From Chlamydiota bacterium (lineage in GTDB: Bacteria; Chlamydiota; Chlamydiia; Chlamydiales; Simkaniaceae), in NCBI GenBank assembly GCA_011065165.1, contig JAAKFF010000047.1, positions 1 through 12,398 of the forward strand: a stretch of 12,398 bases of DNA. Reading direction: 5' to 3'. The translations under genes were made by a program, and so were the position numbers. Below are positions 1,316 through 10,029 of this stretch, one piece after another. Position 1 is the first letter of the stretch, and the number at the start of each line of letters is the position of its first letter. The notes under the pieces were generated by a model, which was not told where the DNA came from, did no database searches, and saw nothing but the letters and a program-made list of their open reading frames with translations.

Positions 1316-1372
1316 CTCTATGAAAAACCCATATTAAAATGTGCCAAAATTCTATCGCCTAAAAGTAGCTGA

Positions 1373-1389
1373 GGCACACTCATGGCACA
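1373..1389. promoter_or_regulatory. GGCACA-N5-GGCACA (TGTGCC-N5-TGTGCC on the other strand), a candidate arm-type integrase or RDF binding site near attL.
   Basis: 'ggcacactcatggcaca'. The 18-mer AGGCACACTCATGGCACA at 1372-1389 is identical to 9257-9274. A single extra TGTGCC lies at 1340-1345. Confidence 0.4.
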
Positions 1390-1404
1390 CAACCTAATGA
1401 TTAA

Positions 1405-1944
1405 CTATGACAATTCTTGGCTTGCAAAGCTTTCTTCGGTTTTTTTGAAAGAGTATTGTAGATTCATTAATCTTTGCTTCAGGATTCCAGCTCTGTAGGA
1501 GAAAGCCGTCAAGCTCAAAACAAACAACATAAAAACTGGGTTCCATAATGTGATTTTTAAGATGAGTAAGTCCGACTCATCTTCCAAAGTGAAAAATGAG
1601 TTTAAGTTCTTCGCCTGTAATATGAGGAGCAAAAAGGAAAAGGACAAGAAAAGCAAGTCTTTAGAAATGATAGAAAAGGCATGCTTTATATAGTCAAAAT
1701 CAGTGTATTCAAGAGATTTATCTAGGAATTTATTTATAAAAAATTTCAATGCTTGCAGTAGAATAAATCCAAAAAGCGCTCCGATTAGAGTGAAAAAATA
1801 GAAAATATCTATAGCGTTAAATAAAAGAACTAAACCAAAAGTCGCATAAGCCGAAAATAATAGCCGTTTGCCAAACATTTTTATTTGCTTCCAATTGGGC
1901 GCTTTAGACTTTAAAAGCTGAAGAACATCTCTTTTTACTTCCAT
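1405..1944 (-). CDS. Small integral membrane protein (about 4 predicted TM helices). It is a candidate membrane toxin partner of the upstream Panacea-domain antitoxin.
   Basis: The 179-aa product has four hydrophobic stretches: LLFSAYATFGLVLLFNAI, FYFFTLIGALFGFILLQAL, LLFLSFSFLLLIL and PVFMLFVLSLTAFSY. It starts 14 nt downstream of the antitoxin stop on the same strand, with no SD, which suggests coupling. No recognisable family. Confidence 0.5.
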   Translation of the reverse strand: MEVKRDVLQLLKSKAPNWKQIKMFGKRLLFSAYATFGLVLLFNAIDIFYFFTLIGALFGFILLQALKFFINKFLDKSLEYTDFDYIKHAFSIISKDLLFLSFSFLLLILQAKNLNSFFTLEDESDLLILKITLWNPVFMLFVLSLTAFSYRAGILKQRLMNLQYSFKKTEESFASQELS

Positions 1945-1958
1945 ATGTAGGATAATTC

Positions 1959-2864
1959 TTATAGTGCTTGCGATTCTTTTAGAATACGTAGATTTCTTGC
2001 AGATTCATAGCTAATAAACGATCCTTCTTCTGTTTTTTTGTAAGCTTCTTCTTCATGCGATGTTTTGAGGATTTTTTGTGGTCCGAAGGTTTGATATAGC
2101 TTTAATATAAATTCCAATGTCTCTTTTTCTCTATCTTCGAATAAAGTTGGGTCTGATGGAATTAGTACTTCGTATTTATGATTGTTTATTTTTTTAAGAC
2201 ATCCAGCTTTGACCAAGGCTTCATAAATGGGGCTATATTGATCAGGACAAGGACCAAGTTTTAGGGGTATATATCGAGCTCCAGTTAAGCTTACTCCATA
2301 TTTCTTAAAATGGTAAAAATCGATGTAAAAATGCAGTTTGTTCAGATAAAGAATGGATTCTTTAGTATGCTCAACAAGAAATAAGGCAACATTTTTAAAT
2401 AACTGTAAGTTAAACTTTATATTACCGCTGTATATACCTGGTTCATCTCGCTTCCAGTGAACGCTTAAGAAATTCATTTCAGCCGCAGCTTCGTCACATT
2501 TAAGGCGGATAAGTTCATCTTGACTTGCATCCTGTATATAATATGTTTCCCATCTCTTGATGCTGGCTTCCCCAGCACCCAAATAGCGAGCAAACGCTGA
2601 TTGAGACATCCCTAATTCTTCTCGGTAGGCAATAATTTGAGAAGATGTAAGGAGATTGTGGTTTTCTTTATATTTATCTGCCGAAGCGCGTCGTAAAACA
2701 CTCATTTGTTCCGTATTCATAAGTGGGGTTTGGCAGTTTTCACAAACCGTGCAAGGAACAATAACTTCAAGTGTTTCCCCTTTTATCTCAGGGGTGAAAC
2801 GGATCTTTTTTTCAATAAATTGAGTTTTATTGCATTTCAAGCATTTCATAATTTCTTCTTTCAC
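1959..2864 (-). CDS. MqsA-like antitoxin (N-terminal zinc ribbon plus XRE-type HTH) fused to a C-terminal Panacea/DUF4065-like domain.
   Basis: The N-terminus 'MKCLKCNK...(27 aa)...CTVCENC' aligns by eye with E. coli MqsA 'MKCPVCHQ...CVHCEES'. The HTH 'LTSSQIIAYREELGMSQSAFARYLGAGEASIKRWE' aligns with MqsA 'LSLTQKEASEIFGGGVNAFSRYEKGNAQP'. The C-terminal roughly 190 aa carries 'ILYLNKLHFYIDFYHFKKYG...ARYIPLKLGPCPDQY'. That matches the GepA/SocA Panacea pattern (LxKLLYYAd...f.Aw.yGPV...Y). Its ATG overlaps the stop of the upstream mqsR-like gene by 4 bp (ATGA). Confidence 0.7.
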   Translation of the reverse strand: MKEEIMKCLKCNKTQFIEKKIRFTPEIKGETLEVIVPCTVCENCQTPLMNTEQMSVLRRASADKYKENHNLLTSSQIIAYREELGMSQSAFARYLGAGEASIKRWETYYIQDASQDELIRLKCDEAAAEMNFLSVHWKRDEPGIYSGNIKFNLQLFKNVALFLVEHTKESILYLNKLHFYIDFYHFKKYGVSLTGARYIPLKLGPCPDQYSPIYEALVKAGCLKKINNHKYEVLIPSDPTLFEDREKETLEFILKLYQTFGPQKILKTSHEEEAYKKTEEGSFISYESARNLRILKESQAL

Positions 2865-3253
2865 TCTTTCGAATATTTACATTTATGTAATGATACATAG
2901 TAAAAAAGGCCACCTTTGATAGAGAACTTCAAATACATCTGCTGTCTAAGCTGGTAGCTATACCATGAAAAAGCCCATAAGTCGTGATTTTCAATTTTAG
3001 ACTCATAGCTCTTAAGCGGCGGATAAGCACCTTTATAATCTTCTGGGTGTAGTTCATTGATTAATTTCGAAATTAACTCCCATATTTCATCTGTTTGCCC
3101 TATTTCTAGGTTCATTAATTCTCCCACCACTTTATCGGGGTTGGCAAATGCTACCCGTCTATTTTCTAGAGCTTCCTTTGCTTCTTTTAGTCGCTTGTCG
3201 ATTTCTCTATAAGTAGGACGCTTCACTATTCTTCCTGTATCAAATGACACCAT
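2861..3253 (-). CDS. mqsR: MqsR-family toxin (mRNA interferase-like).
   Basis: An eye alignment to E. coli MqsR spans the whole protein. KRPTYR matches KRTPHTR, EDYKGA matches DFYKSM, HDLWAFSWY matches HTIWQDVY, QMYLKFSI matches QVYLKITV and YYVSLHKCK matches LIVSFKEK. The ORF track starts at a TTG (3256); the first ATG is at 3253. Gene order is toxin then antitoxin, as in mqsRA. Confidence 0.65.
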   Translation of the reverse strand: MVSFDTGRIVKRPTYREIDKRLKEAKEALENRRVAFANPDKVVGELMNLEIGQTDEIWELISKLINELHPEDYKGAYPPLKSYESKIENHDLWAFSWYSYQLRQQMYLKFSIKGGLFYYVSLHKCKYSKE

Positions 3254-3373
3254 CAAATGATACCAAAAACCAATATTTTAAGTCAATTTATGAAAATCAA
3301 TAATTTAAATTACTTATATTAAATATATTAAGTGCAAAAGGTTAGCTAATTCACATGCAAAAAAATATTTTAT

Positions 3374-3390
3374 TGTGCCTCAAATGTGCC
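3374..3390. promoter_or_regulatory. TGTGCC-N5-TGTGCC direct repeat upstream of the integrase promoter. It is a candidate integrase arm-type site or operator.
   Basis: 'tgtgcctcaaatgtgcc'. It has the same half-site and 11-bp register as the sites at 1373-1389 and 9258-9274, in the opposite orientation. It lies about 75 bp upstream of the -35. Confidence 0.35.
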
Positions 3391-3464
3391 TTTCCATTAT
3401 GTAAAGTGCATAATCAGCTTATATTAAGTATCTTGAAAAGAGTAATCGAAAGATTCATACTCTA

Positions 3465-3493
3465 TTGACTGATAAATCTCGTCTTTGTATGAT
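3465..3493 (+). promoter_or_regulatory. Sigma-70-type promoter of the integrase gene (TTGACT-N17-TATGAT).
   Basis: -35 TTGACT is at 3465-3470. -10 TATGAT is at 3488-3493. The spacer is exactly 17 bp. The ORF-track ATG at 3485 sits inside the -10 hexamer. Confidence 0.55.
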
Positions 3494-3517
3494 AGCCAAA
3501 AAATTCTGAGAAAACTC

Positions 3518-4585
3518 ATGGCCAATATACAAGAACGCAAATCGAAAGACGGAAAAACTACCTATAGAGTCCAGATTAGGCTAAAGGGATATCCTTCTCA
3601 AACAGCAACCTTTTCAAGAAAGACTGATGCAAGGAAGTGGGTGCAGCAGATTGAGAGCGCGATTCGAGAAGGACGTCATTTCAAAACAGCCGAGTCCAAA
3701 AAACATACCCTTGGGGACCTTATTGATAGGTACATTAAAACAGTAGTACCTGGAAAAAAGCAGTATGGAGTCACTCAAACAGCCCAACTTCTCTGGTGGA
3801 AGCAAGAGCTTGGGTCTTTTCTCTTGTCTGACATCACTCCAGCACTTATTGCGGAGAAAAGAGACAAACTTCTTCAGGGTTTCACCTATCGTAAGACTAA
3901 GAGGTCTCCATCGACTGTTGTTAGATACTTGGCGGCACTTTCGCATGCTTTTAGCGTGGCTGTTAGAGAATGGGGATGGATTGAAGATTCGCCGGTGAGA
4001 AAAGTCTCGAAGCCTTCGGAGCCTAGAGGACGAGTAAGATTTTTGAGCAGTGATGAGAGAGAAAGACTCTTAGATGTTTGTAAACAGAGTGCTCATCCTT
4101 ATTTGTTCACAGTTGTGGTTTTAGCAATTTCCTCTGGGATGCGTTACTCAGAAATTATGAAACTTACTTGGTCGGATGTCGATTTTGCTAAAAAGCGCAT
4201 CACGTTACATGAAACGAAGAATGGGGAAAGAAGGGTTGTCCCTGTTACAGGTTTTGCTTATGAGCTACTCAAAAAGCATGAAAAGAGTCGACGCATGGAT
4301 ACCTTGCTGCTATTTCCAGCACAAAAGGGACAAAACCCACAAAAGCCTGCTGTTTTGCGTTCTGCTTGGAATCGAGCGCTGGAGCAAGCAAATATTTATA
4401 ACTTTAGATTTCATGACCTAAGACATTCTTGTGCGAGTTATTTAGCAATGAATGGAGCTTCCATTGCAGAGATAGCTGAAGTTCTTGGCCACAAAACACT
4501 TCAAATGGTAAAACGGTATGCGCATCTTTCTGAAGCACATACCGCTTCGGTTATTGAAAGCATGAATAAGAAAATTTTTGGATGA
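3518..4585 (+). CDS. int: Tyrosine site-specific recombinase / P4-type phage integrase.
   Basis: The C-terminal catalytic signature 'HDLRHSCASYLAMNG...LGHKTLQMVKRYAHL' gives the R..HxxR..Y tyrosine recombinase motifs. The N-terminus 'KDGKTTYRVQIRLKG...FSRKTDARKW' resembles the P4-integrase arm-binding domain. The start is moved to the ATG at 3518 (MANIQ...) because ATG 3485 lies within the promoter -10. Confidence 0.9.
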   Translation: MANIQERKSKDGKTTYRVQIRLKGYPSQTATFSRKTDARKWVQQIESAIREGRHFKTAESKKHTLGDLIDRYIKTVVPGKKQYGVTQTAQLLWWKQELGSFLLSDITPALIAEKRDKLLQGFTYRKTKRSPSTVVRYLAALSHAFSVAVREWGWIEDSPVRKVSKPSEPRGRVRFLSSDERERLLDVCKQSAHPYLFTVVVLAISSGMRYSEIMKLTWSDVDFAKKRITLHETKNGERRVVPVTGFAYELLKKHEKSRRMDTLLLFPAQKGQNPQKPAVLRSAWNRALEQANIYNFRFHDLRHSCASYLAMNGASIAEIAEVLGHKTLQMVKRYAHLSEAHTASVIESMNKKIFG

Positions 4586-4588
4586 ATC

Positions 4589-5191
4589 ATGAATGATGAA
4601 AGGAAGAAAGCTAACCTGGAGCAGGAAAAGAGGAGAAACCCATTAAATCTTAAGTGGCTGAAAATAGATTATTTAACACCACCTCAAGCTACATTAATAT
4701 ACTATGGTATTGAACCTTCACGTGATGATTCAAGAAATATGCAAATTATTCAAGCCGTTGATTTCCTTGGAGTGCTTCAGGTTCTTACTGCCTCGGAGTT
4801 TATTTTGGTTCGATTAAATGCCATTAGATTTCCAGAGTTTGTAGCATGGCTGGAAGAAAAAGGGTTTGAGATTCCATCGCATCTAGAATCGATGGCAGAT
4901 ACTGCACGTTTGCAAATAAGAAAAGATGCCCCACTAAAAGGTGAGTTATTAGAGCTTGACACTAGGACGCTTAGGCCTGAGCAGAGATTTAAGTTTTTTT
5001 TACGTTGTTGGGCAGGAGACTATTGGAAGTTAGGTGGCAATATATCTGCAAGTGAGCTTGTAGAATGTAATAATGATTTTAAAAAGACTCGTAGCGATTG
5101 GGAAAACCGTACGAAGAAAAAATATGATGATGATACAATCAAAGGCTGGATTTCGGATATGAGTCCTAAGTCGAAAAAGAACGTATCCTAA
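4589..5191 (+). CDS. Hypothetical protein, tightly coupled to the integrase (3-nt gap).
   Basis: The 200-aa ORF starts 'ggatgaatcATG' directly after the int stop. It has a charged N-terminus and C-terminus. No family recognised. Confidence 0.45.
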   Translation: MNDERKKANLEQEKRRNPLNLKWLKIDYLTPPQATLIYYGIEPSRDDSRNMQIIQAVDFLGVLQVLTASEFILVRLNAIRFPEFVAWLEEKGFEIPSHLESMADTARLQIRKDAPLKGELLELDTRTLRPEQRFKFFLRCWAGDYWKLGGNISASELVECNNDFKKTRSDWENRTKKKYDDDTIKGWISDMSPKSKKNVS

Positions 5192-5429
5192 CGTTTGGTT
5201 TTTTTACCCTCTCGTTAAGTAACTTCATCCCCTTCATCGGTGGAAAATACCCCTCCGCACAACAAGGTATCCCCATCGATAGTATTAATCCTTAGCTCTC
5301 ATTCATAGAGACACCCCCCCTGTTTGGCGAGGAGGGGGTACTGTTATCTTCCAAATCTAGAATTAATTTCCATAATTCGTACTAATAAAGATTGTTCTTA
5401 ATTGAAACCCTAAACCCATGAGGTAAATT

Positions 5430-5660
5430 ATGGAAATAGTACAAAAAAACAAAACTGGACGGCTTTTGTCTGTAGCCCAGTTTGCAATAGAACACCCTGC
5501 TTTTAGCCAGCCAGCTTTGAGGCATCTAATATTTGATGCTGAAGCTAATGGCTTTTGGAAGGTAGTTAGGCGTATCGGAAAGAGAAAAATTTTGCTGGAT
5601 GAGCAAGCTTTTTTCGATTGGGTTAACGAGCAGAATAAAGGAGGTCAAAATGAGTCCTAG
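5430..5660 (+). CDS. AlpA/excisionase-family helix-turn-helix DNA-binding protein. It is a putative regulator or recombination directionality factor.
   Basis: The 76-aa product has 'LLSVAQFAIEHPAFSQPALRHLIFDAEANGFWKVVRRIGKRKILLDEQAFFDWV'. This fits the Xis/AlpA MerR-like wing-HTH pattern (..LS..e.a...gvs..t.yrl...g.fP..ik.G.r.rw...e...Wl). An SD 'gagg' lies 9 nt upstream. Confidence 0.55.
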   Translation: MEIVQKNKTGRLLSVAQFAIEHPAFSQPALRHLIFDAEANGFWKVVRRIGKRKILLDEQAFFDWVNEQNKGGQNES

Positions 5661-6000
5661 AGATATGAGATTGTTAAGAAGTTTGGTCGAAGAGGAAAGG
5701 GTATTTGTACGTGACCTTCGCTCTCGAATTGGGTCTTTAAACCCTGCACAGAATGCACTGTCTTTAAGAAACCAGGAGTGGAGGATTCAAACCGACTATA
5801 TAGGTATTCATGATAGGGACGGAGTCCTCTGTCGACCTGGCTATTACTGGATGGAAGAGAGTGAAAGGGAAAGAGCTCGAATCTTTCTTGAAAAGGCTGA
5901 AAGAGCGGCTGCAACCGCTCCATCAGCAAAACTAGATATTTCAGCTCGCGAAAGCAATAAAACATCTAATTCGAAAGATACCATAGGAGGAAAAGGATGA
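5650..6000 (+). CDS. Hypothetical protein.
   Basis: The ATG at 5650 is preceded by a strong SD 'aaaggaggtcaaaATG'. It overlaps the stop of the previous gene. The ORF track's 5599 start is rejected in favour of this SD-supported start. The product is Arg/Glu-rich and has no recognised domain. Confidence 0.5.
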   Translation: MSPRDMRLLRSLVEEERVFVRDLRSRIGSLNPAQNALSLRNQEWRIQTDYIGIHDRDGVLCRPGYYWMEESERERARIFLEKAERAAATAPSAKLDISARESNKTSNSKDTIGGKG

Positions 6001-7451
6001 ACAGCTTTTCTTCCAATCAAGCCCCCATTCCTTTGGGGGCTGCTTCTATTCCTAAGTGGCCTCAAGATATTTTCCCTGATGAGCTTCAGTCTTTTTTAAA
6101 TGAATTGTCAGCGTCAACGGAAACACCTTTGGAGTTAGCGGCACTTTCTTGTTTTTCAATCCTTGCAACAGCGGCACAAGGAAAATTTTGCGTCCAAATC
6201 GATGCGGGGTACTCTGAGCCGGTCAATATCTGGACGTCTGTTGCACTTCCTTCAGGGAGTCGCAAAACGAGTGTATTCAATGCATTGATGGAGCCCTTGA
6301 TTAGCTGGGAGCGGCAAAAGAAGGAGGAATTAGGGCCTAAGGTAGTTCAGGCTCAATCTGAAAAGAGAACTATGGAGGCAAGGATTAAGGAGTTGCGGCG
6401 CCAGGCTGCATCAGCTAAGTGCGATGAATTTAAAACGCTGAGCCAAGAAATAACTCTTCTGGAATCATCCATGGAAGAGGGAATTATTATTCCACATCTA
6501 TGGACTGCTGACGTGACAGCTGAAACTTTGGCTGTTCTTATGACTGAAAATAAAGAAAGGATGGCAATTTTATCTGATGAAGCAGGAATTTTTGACATTA
6601 TAGGAGGGAGATATTCAAATGGAATTCCAAATTTAGATATTTTTTTGCAAGGGCATGCCTGTAGCCCTTCTCGGGTAAACCGGAAAGGCAAGCCTCCTAT
6701 TTTTCTAGAGAAAGCAACATTATCCGTTGGATTAGTGCCACAACCTGATGTTTTGCAAGGGTTGACAAAGAATCCTCTTTTTCGAGGGAGGGGCTTGCTT
6801 GCTCGATTCTTGTATGCCATGCCTATTTCGAATTTAGGAAATCGCACTTTAGATACTACTCCCATGTCATCATCTTCTTGTGCTAGGTATGAGCAAATCA
6901 TCCATTCCATCCTTGATATTGATGGGAGTAATAAGGTCATTAGCCTTTCTCCTGAGGCATATTCAGAGTGGCATGTATATGCAGTAGCGATTGAGATTCA
7001 AATGAGCGAAGGGGGGCCTCTATGCTTTATGCGGGACTGGGCTTCGAAATTACCTGGGGCCATAGCCAGGTTAGCTGGGTTGCTGCATATTTGTCGTCAC
7101 TCATGTGGAGAGCCGGAACTGGTCGCTGTTAGCATAGTGGATATAAAAGCAGCAATTCGCCTTGGGCATTGCTTAATTGAACATGCAAAGATAGCTTTTG
7201 ATTCTATGGGTGCAGACCCAGCTTTAGATGGAGCAAGGGTAGTCTTAGGATGGATTAAAAGGACCCAACCAGAGCGATTTACCTTCCGTGACTGCCACTA
7301 TGCCCTCAAAAGTCGATTTAAGCGTGCGAAGGACCTTGCTCCATCTATAGAGGTCTTGAAAGAGAGAAATCATATCTTTGAAAAAGATGAGGAAAATAAG
7401 AAGCCCTGCCGTCCCAGTAGAGTTTTTCTGCCAAACCTTATGATTTATTAA
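5997..7451 (+). CDS. DUF3987 (YfjI-like) protein typical of AlpA/P4-integrase islands.
   Basis: The N-terminal region 'FPDELQSFLNELSASTETPLELAALSCFSILATAAQGKF...SEPVNIWTSVALPSGSRKTSVFNALMEPL' matches the recalled DUF3987 pattern (FP..L...v..vae..q.P..LAa...L.a.aaa.qg...EP.NLyt.vvappGeRKS.v). It has a degenerate Walker-A-like 'PSGSRKTS'. Its start ATGA overlaps the previous stop. Confidence 0.65.
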   Translation: MNSFSSNQAPIPLGAASIPKWPQDIFPDELQSFLNELSASTETPLELAALSCFSILATAAQGKFCVQIDAGYSEPVNIWTSVALPSGSRKTSVFNALMEPLISWERQKKEELGPKVVQAQSEKRTMEARIKELRRQAASAKCDEFKTLSQEITLLESSMEEGIIIPHLWTADVTAETLAVLMTENKERMAILSDEAGIFDIIGGRYSNGIPNLDIFLQGHACSPSRVNRKGKPPIFLEKATLSVGLVPQPDVLQGLTKNPLFRGRGLLARFLYAMPISNLGNRTLDTTPMSSSSCARYEQIIHSILDIDGSNKVISLSPEAYSEWHVYAVAIEIQMSEGGPLCFMRDWASKLPGAIARLAGLLHICRHSCGEPELVAVSIVDIKAAIRLGHCLIEHAKIAFDSMGADPALDGARVVLGWIKRTQPERFTFRDCHYALKSRFKRAKDLAPSIEVLKERNHIFEKDEENKKPCRPSRVFLPNLMIY

Positions 7452-7520
7452 GGGTATGGATGAGGTTTTGTGGCTTTTGTCCCTTTTGTTCTAAATATCA
7501 ACCAAAATCGAGAAGATAAT

Positions 7521-8138
7521 ATGCAAAATAAGAATGAATTAGCAGCTGAAAAGAGCTCCCATCTAATACGACCAGAAGCATCCCCTGAGCCCTTTCTAAG
7601 GTTCATCTATGTGAAGAATCCAGAAACGGGAGAGAAGGCTTTAAAAACAGTGGAGCTTTCTGATGGGACGTCTCCTAACGACTCTGGCTTTTTAGAAGGG
7701 GTATTAAAGGCCTTGAAGCGAGCAACAGGTAGTGACAACCCTGAAGTAGCTGAGAGAATTATTTCAGATACAGCTTGGGGGATGTCAAGTAAGGATTCTG
7801 AAGAGAGAATGCATGCTGTTAATACGCTCCTTCCTTCACTGAATCCTCTAGATGAGTCTGAAGCACTATTGCTTGGGCAATTTCTAGCTTTAAGAGACTC
7901 TGGTATGCAGTGTCTGCGTAGAGCAAGTGGTGCGGAAATGCTTTATCACATCAAAGAACTCTATCAGTTGAGCATTAAGCTTATGCGATGTGCAAATGAG
8001 ACAATGCAAACTTTATTGAAATATCGCTCGGGTGGTAAGCAGTTGATTCAAGTCGTCCATGTTTCGGGAGATGGAAAGGCTATTATTGCAAATGAAATGA
8101 ATCTAGGAGAGGGGATCAAAAATAATAATAACGTATAA
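7521..8138 (+). CDS. Hypothetical protein (island cargo).
   Basis: An ORF of 222 aa from 7470, or 205 aa from the ATG at 7521 (MQNKNEL...). No family recognised. It lies in the same orientation and has a short gap to the flanking genes. Confidence 0.4.
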   Translation: MQNKNELAAEKSSHLIRPEASPEPFLRFIYVKNPETGEKALKTVELSDGTSPNDSGFLEGVLKALKRATGSDNPEVAERIISDTAWGMSSKDSEERMHAVNTLLPSLNPLDESEALLLGQFLALRDSGMQCLRRASGAEMLYHIKELYQLSIKLMRCANETMQTLLKYRSGGKQLIQVVHVSGDGKAIIANEMNLGEGIKNNNNV

Positions 8139-8172
8139 CCCCATGTATCATTGAGGCAGGAGGAATTGTATA

Positions 8173-8430
8173 ATGAAAGAGCGGCGATGCCGAGCATATT
8201 CAAAGCGCTCCAAACAGAGATGCAAAAACTGGGCCTTAAGGGGAAAGGGTGTTTGCCGGTTTCATGGAGGGAATTCAACAGGGCCTAAAAGTTCTGAAGG
8301 GAAGGAAAGAGTGTCTAGAGCGCACTTTAAGCATGGTTTGTGTTCATCTTCTTTTCGAAGCAAACTGCTGAGCATGAGAAATTTTATTAAAATTAGTGAT
8401 CGGTTATTGAAAAATTTTACTTACAATTAG
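8173..8430 (+). CDS. HGGxSTG-motif small cysteine-rich protein.
   Basis: 'CRAYSKRSKQRCKNWALRGKGVCRFHGGNSTGPKSSEGKER' gives the C-x..C...C.(R/F)HGGxSTGP.(S/T).EG signature. That family is widespread on phages and plasmids. A strong SD 'aggagg' lies 10 nt upstream. Confidence 0.55.
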   Translation: MKERRCRAYSKRSKQRCKNWALRGKGVCRFHGGNSTGPKSSEGKERVSRAHFKHGLCSSSFRSKLLSMRNFIKISDRLLKNFTYN

Positions 8431-8508
8431 TTTAAAATGTTTTAGTTGTTTCATTTTAATTAATAGTAATGTAAAATCTCTCTAAATAATTCACATTGAA
8501 ATGAACTT

Positions 8509-9003
8509 ATGCATAGACAGTCAAAGAAAATAGTCGTTCTAATCCTATCTGCATGTCTTCTTGTGTTGGCTGGCTGCTCTACTCAATATGGTTCAGAAGG
8601 ATTTATTGGAGGGGGATTTTCGGAAACGCTAATGGCTGCTGATACCTATATTGTTACCTTCAAAGGGAATGGGTTCACTTCATATGAGAAGGCAATCAAA
8701 TATGCTCTCAGAAGAGCTTCTGAGCTGACCCTTGAAAATGGGTACAAATACTTCTCCATTAACTCTTCAATGGACCATTCGAAACAGGTGGCTTACTCAA
8801 ATGCTTCCGCGAATTCTTCCGGTCAGATTGATGTTTATAGGTGCTATAACTCGGTTCTAGGCCAATATAAAGGTTCAGGCTCAAGAAGTTCCTACTCGGG
8901 AATTATTACCAAACCACGAGTCAGCATAGGAATTAAGTGTTATCGAGAGAAGCCAAAAGATATAGAAGTCATTGACGCTAGGTTTTTCTTAGCAAGTAAC
9001 TAA
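8509..9003 (+). CDS. Putative lipoprotein.
   Basis: The N-terminus 'MHRQSKKIVVLILSACLLVLAGCSTQ' has a basic n-region, a hydrophobic core and an LAGC lipobox. It has its own AT-rich upstream region. Confidence 0.55.
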   Translation: MHRQSKKIVVLILSACLLVLAGCSTQYGSEGFIGGGFSETLMAADTYIVTFKGNGFTSYEKAIKYALRRASELTLENGYKYFSINSSMDHSKQVAYSNASANSSGQIDVYRCYNSVLGQYKGSGSRSSYSGIITKPRVSIGIKCYREKPKDIEVIDARFFLASN

Positions 9004-9027
9004 CCTTTTTTTGAACTAGGAGTAATC

Positions 9028-9228
9028 ATGGAAAATAATGAAGAATGGGAAGATGAGACAGAACATGATTTCTCGTCAATCCTTGTTTTTTTGGTAATTG
9101 CAGGTTTTGTAATATGGGTAGGGAGTAATGTTTACTCTGCATTTGAGTGTGAAGCTGAGGAATATTTTTTCGAATCAAAAGAGAACATAAAAGCTTTTTT
9201 TAGGATTATCTTTCAAGGCAGAAGATAA
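9028..9228 (+). CDS. Small single-pass membrane protein.
   Basis: The 66-aa product has an acidic N-terminus and one TM helix, 'ILVFLVIAGFVIWVGSNVY'. An SD 'aggag' lies 8 nt upstream. It sits 24 nt after the lipoprotein stop. Confidence 0.4.
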   Translation: MENNEEWEDETEHDFSSILVFLVIAGFVIWVGSNVYSAFECEAEEYFFESKENIKAFFRIIFQGRR

Positions 9229-9257
9229 GAAATAACGTAGGCTTTAATTTTGTTGAA

Positions 9258-9274
9258 GGCACACTCATGGCACA
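9258..9274. promoter_or_regulatory. GGCACA-N5-GGCACA, a candidate arm-type site near attR.
   Basis: 'ggcacactcatggcaca' is identical to 1373-1389. It lies about 117 bp inside the island from attR. It is embedded in the inverted repeat CACTCA-N11-TGAGTG. Confidence 0.4.
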
Positions 9275-9390
9275 TTTCTGAGTGAAAACCAAGGAAACAT
9301 TGCGAATATTTAGGATAAATTTTAGTTCTTAAGTTTTTGGTTGTTATTTCTTTGAATATCATTAGCTATCATGAGTTGTCCTCAAGAAAA

Positions 9391-9447
9391 GACTGTAAAT
9401 CCATCGACTTCGGTCTCCGCCAGTTCGAGTCTGGCTGCCCCCATTTC
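9391..9447 (+). repeat. attR: an orphan copy of the tRNA-Tyr 3' half (anticodon loop to 3' end plus 4 nt), followed by a T-tract.
   Basis: It is a 57/57 identity with 1259-1315. No 5' half of the tRNA is present. It is followed by 'gttttttt'. Confidence 0.85.
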
Positions 9448-9493
9448 GTTTTTTTAGGTGTTTGGTGCTCTCTTTTTAGTGTCTTTGTCCTAG

Positions 9494-9601
9494 CCCTCCT
9501 CGCCAAGCTCATTCAAGCTTGCCGTCGTCGCGTTAGAACAAATCCATCAAAAAATAGATGCCCCAAACACCCAAAAAAACTCATGGGGGCAGCCGCTGCC
9601 C
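9494..9601. repeat. Copy 1 of an imperfect direct repeat of roughly 100 bp. It ends in a GC hairpin and a T-tract.
   Basis: 'cctcgccaagctcattcaagcttgccgtcgtcgcgttagaaca...acacccaaaaaaactcatgggggcagccgctgccc'. The core matches copy 2 at 9744-9835 with few mismatches. It has the terminal palindrome GGGCAGC-C-GCTGCCC. Confidence 0.6.
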
Positions 9602-9612
9602 TTTCTTTGTTT
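9587..9612 (+). terminator. Rho-independent terminator-like hairpin.
   Basis: Perfect 7-bp GC-rich stem 'gggcagc c gctgccc' followed by 'tttctttgttt'. Similar structures occur at 9703-9718 (gggagc tgtc gctccc) and at 9961-9987 (gggagc agcc gctccc, then 'ctattggttttt'). Confidence 0.4.
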
Positions 9613-9743
9613 ATGGTGGGTTTTTTTAGAGGAGTTTGAGAAGTAGTTAGAGGAGCTGTTAGAGGGGTTGTTAATTCTTCGTTAAAAAGCCAATATCTTC
9701 TTGGGAGCTGTCGCTCCCATTGAAGATTTTGGCTTTCTATCCT

Positions 9744-9835
9744 AAGGCTCCTCGCCAAGCTTATCCAAGCTTGCCGTCGTCGCGGTAGGATAAAGCTGAA
9801 CACCCACTACCTCATGGGGGACTGCCGCTATCTAC
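9744..9835. repeat. Copy 2 of the imperfect direct repeat of roughly 100 bp.
   Basis: 'ggctcctcgccaagcttatccaagcttgccgtcgtcgcggtaggataa...acacccactacctcatgggggactgccgctatc'. Confidence 0.6.
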
Positions 9836-10029
9836 CATCAAGATCACTCTAGACGACGCTACGCTCCTTATTAAGGACTGAGTTATATGAGTCAAATAAA
9901 TAATGAGTTCTGTGCTATATGACTCATTTTGACTCAGATGAGTGATAGATAAACCCTCATGGGAGCAGCCGCTCCCCTATTGGTTTTTAAGGGCGTTTTG
10001 TCTATTATTTTGAAGGAAGAGGGAGGATT

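Follow-up and report, generated by a model that had tools for sequence, protein, structure and literature searches.

Phased copies of the hexamer TGTGCC occur in an 8.1-kb integrative island carried by a 12,398-bp contig of a Chlamydiota bacterium of the family Simkaniaceae (JAAKFF010000047.1, GenBank assembly GCA_011065165.1), and the question raised by this locus is which protein reads them and for what purpose. This whole stretch of DNA is referred to below as the window. A tRNA-Tyr gene is the integration site of the island, the ends of which are set by a 57-bp direct repeat, and the island encodes a tyrosine integrase (Int). The hexamers occur as tandem pairs with an 11-bp start-to-start spacing; one pair lies inside each end of the island, and a third, inverted pair lies upstream of int. 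A first-pass annotation made from the sequence alone had proposed that these pairs are arm-type sites bound by Int through its N-terminal domain (N-domain). Two lines of comparative evidence support this proposal. The placement of the pairs is conserved among related elements, and the hexamer co-varies with Int residues 5, 17 and 19 and not with a co-inherited 76-aa protein resembling helix-turn-helix (HTH) proteins. This pattern of co-variation argues that the TGTGCC pairs are very likely arm-type sites read by the Int N-domain. The features on which the argument depends are listed here.

1229-1312, (+) strand: tRNA-Tyr (GTA), the integration target, identified with ARAGORN
1259-1315, (+) strand: attL copy of the 57-bp direct repeat, a perfect repeat of 9391-9447
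1340-1345, (+) strand: single inverted TGTGCC half-site of uncertain status
1373-1389, (-) strand: P' arm pair TGTGCC-ATGAG-TGTGCC, two tandem putative arm-type sites that start 61 nt after the tRNA 3' end
3374-3390, (+) strand: int-proximal pair TGTGCC-TCAAA-TGTGCC in inverted orientation, a candidate Int operator and/or auxiliary P' site
3465-3493, (+) strand: int promoter-like site TTGACT-17-TATGAT, found by consensus scan with 10/12 matches
3518-4585, (+) strand: tyrosine integrase of 355 aa (Pfam Phage_integrase, 4e-36)
5430-5660, (+) strand: 76-aa HTH-like protein with homologues in 41 loci
9258-9274, (-) strand: P arm pair TGTGCC-ATGAG-TGTGCC, two tandem putative arm-type sites that end 116 bp before the attR repeat
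9391-9447, (+) strand: attR copy of the 57-bp direct repeat, a perfect repeat of 1259-1315

Placement and conservation of the TGTGCC pairs

An exact search of the window with TGTGCCNNNNNTGTGCC (TGTGCC-N5-TGTGCC) returned exactly three matches, at the three positions reported in the first-pass annotation. The 18-mer AGGCACACTCATGGCACA, which had been described as common to both (-) strand pairs, was recovered at 1372-1389 and 9257-9274. The P' pair lies 57 bp inside attL (1316-1372) and the P pair 116 bp inside attR (9275-9390), while the int-proximal pair ends 74 bp before the int -35 hexamer and 127 bp before the int ATG (3518). These measurements agree with the earlier estimates of about 57, 117 and 75 bp, respectively. 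The attL repeat constitutes the 3' part of tRNA-Tyr, from within the anticodon stem-loop to 3 nt beyond the tRNA 3' end. The motif is therefore distinct from the core, is present on both sides of the crossover region and falls within the size of an attP.

No match to the TGTGCC pair was found in any of 200 dinucleotide-preserving shuffles of the window. Because the motif had been picked after being seen, a post-hoc control was run in which any hexamer followed by N5 and the same hexamer was counted; three or more copies were obtained in 0 of 1000 shuffles, and two copies in 13 of 1000. Single TGTGCC hexamers were mildly enriched (8 versus 3.4 expected); the eighth, at 6173-6178 on the (-) strand inside the DUF3987 gene, had been missed in the first-pass annotation. 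When up to three mismatches were allowed, no extra pair beyond chance was detected in the window. The single half-site at 1340-1345 exists as reported. Of the relatives that share this target, the closest one, L001, also has TTAAAATGTGCC, located 27 nt past its tRNA-Tyr; the half-site is absent from six other TGTGCC-class relatives.

Integrase relatives were collected in a scan of one genome per species, which provided 33 loci, and 160 further loci were added from metagenome and viral contigs. The integrase has at least 7989 relatives at E<=1e-20, and an identical protein is present in a metagenome-assembled genome (MAG) of Chlamydiae. In each of the five closest full-length relatives carrying the TGTGCC motif (L001, L002, L003, L005 and L006; 62-71% integrase identity), TGTGCC pairs with no more than one mismatch number exactly three. 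The pairs are always in the order (-) ... (+) int ... (-), with none elsewhere in about 100 kb. L004, with 63% identity, has TGGGGA instead of TGTGCC. Throughout these five relatives the (-) pair begins 60-72 nt past the tRNA 3' end, and the end of the (+) pair is separated from the int ATG by 127-135 bp. The distance from the end of the distal (-) pair to the attR repeat is 116-118 bp in close relatives and 111 bp in L001, because the exact repeat of L001 starts 5 nt earlier. L001 has 71% integrase identity and the same tRNA-Thr/tRNA-Tyr context as the window; it comes from a MAG labelled 'Chlamydia trachomatis', a name that is hard to reconcile with the presence of such an island and is probably a taxonomic mislabel.

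The integration targets vary among relatives (tRNA-Tyr, Leu, Phe, Lys, Thr, Asn, Ser and Gln). The geometry is retained in the wider set. An exact (-) TGNNNN-N5-TGNNNN pair was found 37-72 bp after the tRNA in 39 of the 48 elements with an upstream tRNA, a count that rises to 42 when one mismatch is allowed; by chance, about 0.001 would be expected per locus. All 11 elements for which attR was found have a pair in this orientation as well, 106-119 bp ahead of their inner attR repeat. In the comparison suggested by the first-pass annotation, homologous islands thus keep a phased pair at corresponding positions relative to the att/tRNA core and to int. Two layouts were distinguished. In the 'long' layout the gap between tRNA and int is about 290-390 bp and contains the (-) pair followed by the (+) pair. 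In the 'short' layout the gap is 100-160 bp and contains only the (-) pair, 45-85 bp before the ATG. The TGTGCC class, together with the same type of integrase, was found in MAGs labelled Chlamydiae, Gammaproteobacteria, Nitrospirae and Undibacterium. The tRNA repeat begins at the anticodon loop in every relative for which a repeat was found, and crossover and the core-type sites would be located at the anticodon stem-loop.

Two further observations concern the ends of these elements. Outer copies of the tRNA 3' repeat are present beyond the inner attR in L002 (19654-19701), L003 (16934-16989) and L019 (20288-20320), and no pair precedes these extra repeats; the copies suggest that neighbouring elements, in tandem or decayed, occupy the same tRNA. 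In addition, a loosely conserved stretch follows each of the flanking pairs; it is CTTTCAAATGACA-like in L001-L003 and less well preserved in the window (1390-1402 and 9275-9290). The functional arm element may therefore span some 30 bp or take in the site of an accessory protein.

The attP of the excised circle can be predicted by bringing the island ends together. In this attP of about 250 bp, the P pair (9258-9274) would be separated by 116 bp from the 57-bp core repeat, and the core repeat by 57 bp from the P' pair (1373-1389). The viral contig L120, a free phage genome, contains such an arrangement. Genes for the terminase large subunit, a primase and a helicase lie to the left of its tRNA-like sequence, indicating that the DNA there belongs to a phage and not to a host. 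The order in L120 is a pair (9695-9711), 120 bp, a tRNA-Tyr-like core, 65 bp, a second pair (9950-9966), 34 bp and int. This is the attP predicted from the window island, with two flanking pairs only and no third pair. L071 was considered as a second attP-like juxtaposition and was set aside; its geometry is less regular (95-bp gap) and its contig is too short to interpret.

Co-variation of the half-site with the integrase N-domain

Lineages outside the TGTGCC class keep the phase and position of the pairs and change the hexamer, which is then TGCGCC, TGTCCC, TGCACC, TGCACT, TGTGAC, TGGACC, TGCCCC, TGCGAC, TGCAAC or TGGGGA. Mutual information was calculated between these half-sites, in an orientation fixed by geometry, and the N-terminal 70 residues of 49 aligned integrases. 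The highest values were obtained for residue 19 with base 4 (1.05 bits), residue 5 with base 4 (0.83), residue 19 with base 3 (0.71) and residue 17 with base 5 (0.70). Each was exceeded in 0 of 2000 permutations, which ignore relatedness.

The residue at position 19 corresponds to the half-site as follows: Q or M with TGTGCC, E or D with TGCGCC, K with TGTCCC, R with TGGACC, L with TGCAC(C/T) and C with TGCCCC. At position 17, R or K is found with C at base 5, and Q or T with A. The residue-19 rule was first seen in the 33 loci and held in the independent metagenome and viral set. There, K19 occurred with TGTCCC in 9 of 12 cases and E/D19 with TGCGCC in 5 of 6, and none occurred with another class. 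Q19 was ambiguous in this set (TGTGCC in 4 of 14, TGCACC in 3 and other sites in 7).

Int residues 1-55 (3518-3682) form a predicted arm-binding domain of the beta3-alpha type that contains Q5, R17 and Q19, the residues that co-vary with the half-site. This extra predicted DNA-binding domain precedes the core-binding and catalytic domains. AlphaFold models of the whole protein and of residues 1-64 placed beta strands at residues 2-8, 14-20 and 28-32 and a helix at residues 35-51, with predicted local distance difference test scores of 83.9 and 80.1, respectively. Residues 5, 17 and 19 are on strands 1 and 2 of the predicted sheet, and in a hairpin of strands 2-8 and 14-20 they would share one face as cross-strand or i+2 neighbours. 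A topology of three strands and a helix is known for the arm-binding domains of lambda and Tn916 Int and for AP2/ERF domains.

Shared descent was examined with a neighbour-joining tree of 45 elements that was built from residues 65-355 only. The half-site class changes at least 19 times on this catalytic-domain tree and residue 19 changes at least 20 times, so that the classes are not single clades. Moreover, different half-site classes occur inside one host group, from which we conclude that the motif tracks the integrase rather than the host.

An alternative is that the pairs serve as operators of a different DNA-binding protein encoded by the element, such as the 76-aa HTH protein acting as an excisionase, directionality factor or repressor. 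Homologues of this protein are found 1-2 kb downstream of int in 41 loci, which include every complete island, and it could in principle co-evolve with the sites. There is also a precedent, as directionality factors bind tandem repeats in att arms (KplE1 TorI, PMC2951348). Both proteins were therefore compared over one set of 31 loci. The highest z for any column of the 76-aa protein was 3.8, whereas Int residues 17, 19 and 5 gave 10.0, 8.7 and 5.7, respectively, and a further Int column gave 6.1. In addition, the co-varying Int positions cluster on a predicted beta-hairpin, and the layout of the pairs resembles the Int-bound arms of phage P2. On the basis of the co-variation the 76-aa protein was rejected as the reader of the sites, and the operator explanation is left with little probability. 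The 76-aa protein, which has no Pfam or PHROG match, may instead be an excisionase or directionality factor of this element family. Least credible of all is that a host factor binds the pairs or that they are chance or repeat-element debris unrelated to recombination: short G+C-richer words are conspicuous in A+T-rich DNA and single hexamers are only mildly enriched, but no shuffle yielded three pairs, placement is conserved, and the same motif class is found across differently labelled MAGs while different classes occur within one host group.

We return to the preferred explanation, recognition of the pairs by the Int N-domain. What was observed is where the sites lie, how they are arranged, that they are conserved and that they co-vary with Int residues. 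Several points count against the explanation. All of the support for it is comparative. The correspondence between residue and base is incomplete, since Q19 integrases use TGTGCC, TGCACC, TGTGAC and others. The mutual-information permutations do not take relatedness into account, a weakness that the 31-locus comparison and the tree address. The function of the third pair is the weakest step; this pair is absent from short-layout relatives, and at 74 bp from the -35 hexamer it is too distant for simple occlusion.

In the mechanism that we propose, the integrase would be heterobivalent, with its catalytic and core-binding domains on the anticodon stem-loop core and its 55-residue N-domain on the TGTGCC arm sites. 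Two tandem sites per arm, 11 bp apart, would place two N-domains on one face of the helix, and the four arm sites of the attP would serve the four protomers of the recombining tetramer. We infer physical binding of the N-domain, this stoichiometry of one tetramer to four sites, the involvement of bending factors and a regulatory role for the third pair. The correspondence itself may amount to a code in which residue 19 specifies bases 3-4 (K for TC, E/D for CG, R for GA, Q/M for TG and L for CA) and residue 17 specifies base 5 (R/K for C and Q/T for A).

The int-proximal pair and the cargo slot

In long-layout relatives the end of the int-proximal pair is 112-199 bp, mostly 127-150 bp, from the int ATG. 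An alignment of 15 int-upstream regions contained as invariant columns only the T-G-..-C of both half-sites and one G. Conservation of the T, A and T columns of the -10-like element was at least 90% in these regions, and the -35-like and -10-like columns of the int promoter-like site are partly conserved among relatives. Without exception the P' pair accompanies the tRNA and the (+) pair accompanies int. In compact relatives the third pair is about 90-105 bp beyond the P' pair, and in the window and L001-L003 the two are separated by 0.7-2.2 kb of unrelated cargo. The conservation upstream of int and the fixed distance to int favour a role for the third pair that is tied to int expression, along the lines of the autoregulation of KplE1 IntS (PMC2951348). 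Autoregulation through this pair, as suggested in the first-pass annotation, is plausible from the sequence, and we regard the probability that the pair is an Int operator as evenly balanced.

It is also possible, with a distinctly lower probability, that the int-proximal pair serves integration or excision as a third arm site (P'2) and is not a transcriptional operator. In compact relatives its distance from the P' pair falls within a P' arm of normal size, and in the window it lies clear of the promoter. Integration and excision of lambda each draw on a different subset of its five arm sites. However, the third pair has remained intact at a fixed distance from int despite the cargo lying between it and the P' pair in the window and L001-L003. 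Moreover, short-layout relatives do without it, and the L120 attP has the two flanking pairs only. The operator and auxiliary-recombination roles are not mutually exclusive. In the preferred reading the third pair would be a further site for the Int N-domain that remains with the int promoter. It would most likely allow Int to feed back on its own transcription, and in compact relatives it might in addition act as an auxiliary P' site.

A second potential operator was noticed in the same region. A GGGATT-N5-7-ATCCC dyad abuts or overlaps the -35-like TTG in L001, L003, L005, L006 and L010, and is degenerate in the window (approximately 3445-3470); it may be an operator for another regulator.

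The DNA between the P' pair and the int-proximal pair of the window contains the following genes.

1405-3256, (-) strand: three cargo open reading frames (ORFs) between the P' pair and the int-proximal pair (Pfam)
1405-1944, (-) strand: cargo ORF of 179 aa
1959-2864, (-) strand: cargo MqsA/HTH/Panacea-domain antitoxin-like protein (Pfam)
2861-3256, (-) strand: cargo ORF of 131 aa

The contents of this interval differ among islands. The window (1405-3256) carries the MqsA/HTH/Panacea antitoxin-like module; no homologue of its cargo was found in any of the fetched loci L001-L137. L001 (8094-9851) carries a Panacea-domain protein, L002 (9144-9853) a chloramphenicol-phosphotransferase-like protein, and L003 (7666-9856) a chloramphenicol-phosphotransferase-like protein together with GNAT and NUDIX proteins. 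The P' region may have been divided into a pair for recombination, kept beside the tRNA, and an Int-responsive pair, kept beside the int promoter, with a tolerated cargo slot between them. This slot may be filled by toxin-antitoxin or antibiotic-modification-enzyme-like genes in different chlamydial islands. That a large integrase family combines a simple, largely modular arm-site code with a split P' region that creates a cargo slot is a joint proposal that we put forward tentatively, and we judge it somewhat more likely to fail than to hold.

Relation to known systems and other features of the island

The closest parallel to the window is phage P2. In the annotated P2 genome (NC_001895) the Int 'P arm' is TGTGGTCAATGTGTGGAC and the 'P' arm' is TGTGGACACTGTGTGGAC. 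As in the window, each P2 arm contains two direct repeats 11 bp apart start to start, in one orientation in both arms, around the core. The P arm reads TGTGGTC-N4-TGTGGAC and the P' arm TGTGGAC-N4-TGTGGAC, so that the repeats start with TGTG as they do in the window. The systems differ in that the motif of the window is TGTGCC and not TGTGGAC or GCCACT, and in that its arm-core distances are longer (116 bp and about 110 bp from the anticodon, versus 36 and 87 bp in P2). Furthermore, the core in the window is the anticodon stem-loop of a tRNA, and an extra inverted pair is present upstream of int.

P2-type (tgTGGaCa) and 186-type (tgccGCCActt) arm repeats were described by Nilsson et al., and positions 16, 19 and 21 of the N-domain alignment were proposed to discriminate between them (PMC3448106). 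Comparison of the N-domain profile with the P2 Int N-terminus by hhalign gave a weak match (E 0.05, probability 1%) in which the beta2 strands align, YRVQIR in the window with YEVDIR in P2. By this weak alignment and an offset reading, the P2/186 discriminator positions are on the same strand as Y16-R21 of the window integrase. At least 10 specificity classes were found in the window integrase family, compared with two in P2/186. We conclude that the pairs correspond in kind to the arm sites of P2/186 and belong to another, far larger integrase family. Membership of the integrase in the P2 type is plausible but unproven, and membership in the P4/SXT type is not supported.

The first-pass annotation had described the integrase N-terminus as looking P4-type, and this part of it was not supported. 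Arm-binding families of Pfam (Arm-DNA-bind, DUF4102, PF13356) gave no match at E<=10 with either the whole protein or residues 1-75; these families presumably include models of the lambda and Tn916 N-domains. NCBIfam likewise gave no arm-binding family match for the Int N-terminus. In contrast to P4-type integrases (DUF4102 / Arm-DNA-bind_3), the window integrase has 355 aa, leaves PF13356 unmatched and has as its closest solved relative by sequence the HP1 integrase catalytic domain (E 4.5e-17); the layout of its sites matches P2. The P4-type label was therefore dropped. The nearest integrases of cultured phages share only 34-36% identity. Phage integrases and those of integrative and conjugative elements that have arm-binding domains fall into few subgroups (Smyshlyaev et al., 10.1101/542381).

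Lambda resembles the window in having a heterobivalent integrase with an N-terminal three-stranded sheet and helix, adjacent arm sites about one helical turn apart and an attP of about 250 bp, and differs in the number and orientation of its arm sites (P1, P2 and P'1-3). In a Foldseek search, full-length lambda Int (1z1b_A) aligned to the whole model over 353 columns (E 9e-10); the isolated N-domain gave no Foldseek match, and hhalign detected no relation between the N-domain profile and lambda Int. In KplE1, the arm sites of IntS lie between the tRNA and the int start, and Int can act on its own promoter (PMC2951348). KplE1 also has the tRNA before int in the same orientation ('STI' shape), as in the window. 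Short-layout relatives resemble KplE1 in that their P' pair is close to the int ATG; in the window, by contrast, the P' pair is 2.1 kb from int, and the int-proximal pair ends well upstream of the -35 hexamer. A literature search for TGTGCC with integrase returned irrelevant primer matches only, and no paper on the arm sites of this integrase family was found.

The remaining features of the window are the following.

1147-1219: tRNA-Thr, directly 5' of tRNA-Tyr, identified with ARAGORN
5997-7451: DUF3987 protein, matching a PHROG 'DNA helicase' (1e-58)

Small ORFs are present between int and the DUF3987 gene, and further ones follow the DUF3987 gene. One product, an 85-aa protein (8173-8430), has weak PHROG matches, one of which is to a terminase small subunit family (9e-05). 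The presence of this protein and the DUF3987 protein in the island core is faintly reminiscent of phage satellites. A 27-nt inverted repeat with 93% complementarity connects approximately codons 268-276 of int (4318-4344) with the spacer right after the DUF3987 gene (7466-7492). Equivalent pairings recur in L001 (10802-10828 / 14131-14157, 85%) and L003 (10805-10829 / 14019-14043, 25/25), and are absent from relatives outside the chlamydial clade of the window. This repeat could allow RNA-RNA pairing that couples the int mRNA to the downstream operon. In the host flank beyond attR (9475-10004) there are two imperfect direct-repeat families (9475-9542 / 9727-9794 and 9575-9628 / 9951-10004) that contain G+C-rich hairpins (GGGGGCAGCCGCTGCCC); they look like a remnant repeat array or one resembling repetitive extragenic palindromes (REP).

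Arm-type sites make integrase reactions directional and controllable, and to our knowledge only a few systems have had theirs defined by experiment. Our findings do not conflict with the textbook mechanism; what they add is a family-wide attP geometry and a correspondence between integrase residues and half-site bases. They provide an attP architecture for a family that is present in MAGs labelled Chlamydiae, Proteobacteria, Nitrospirae and Verrucomicrobia as well as in phages. An 11-bp-phased TGNNNN pair, about 60 bp after a tRNA and about 117 bp before attR, can be used for automatic annotation of island ends and arm sites. The residue-to-base correspondence can be checked by single substitutions. 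If the code is true, arm specificity would be predictable from sequence and could be re-programmed, and orthogonal arm specificities would become available for engineered integrases. For environmental Chlamydiae, the results point to active-looking integrative elements with a defined cargo slot.

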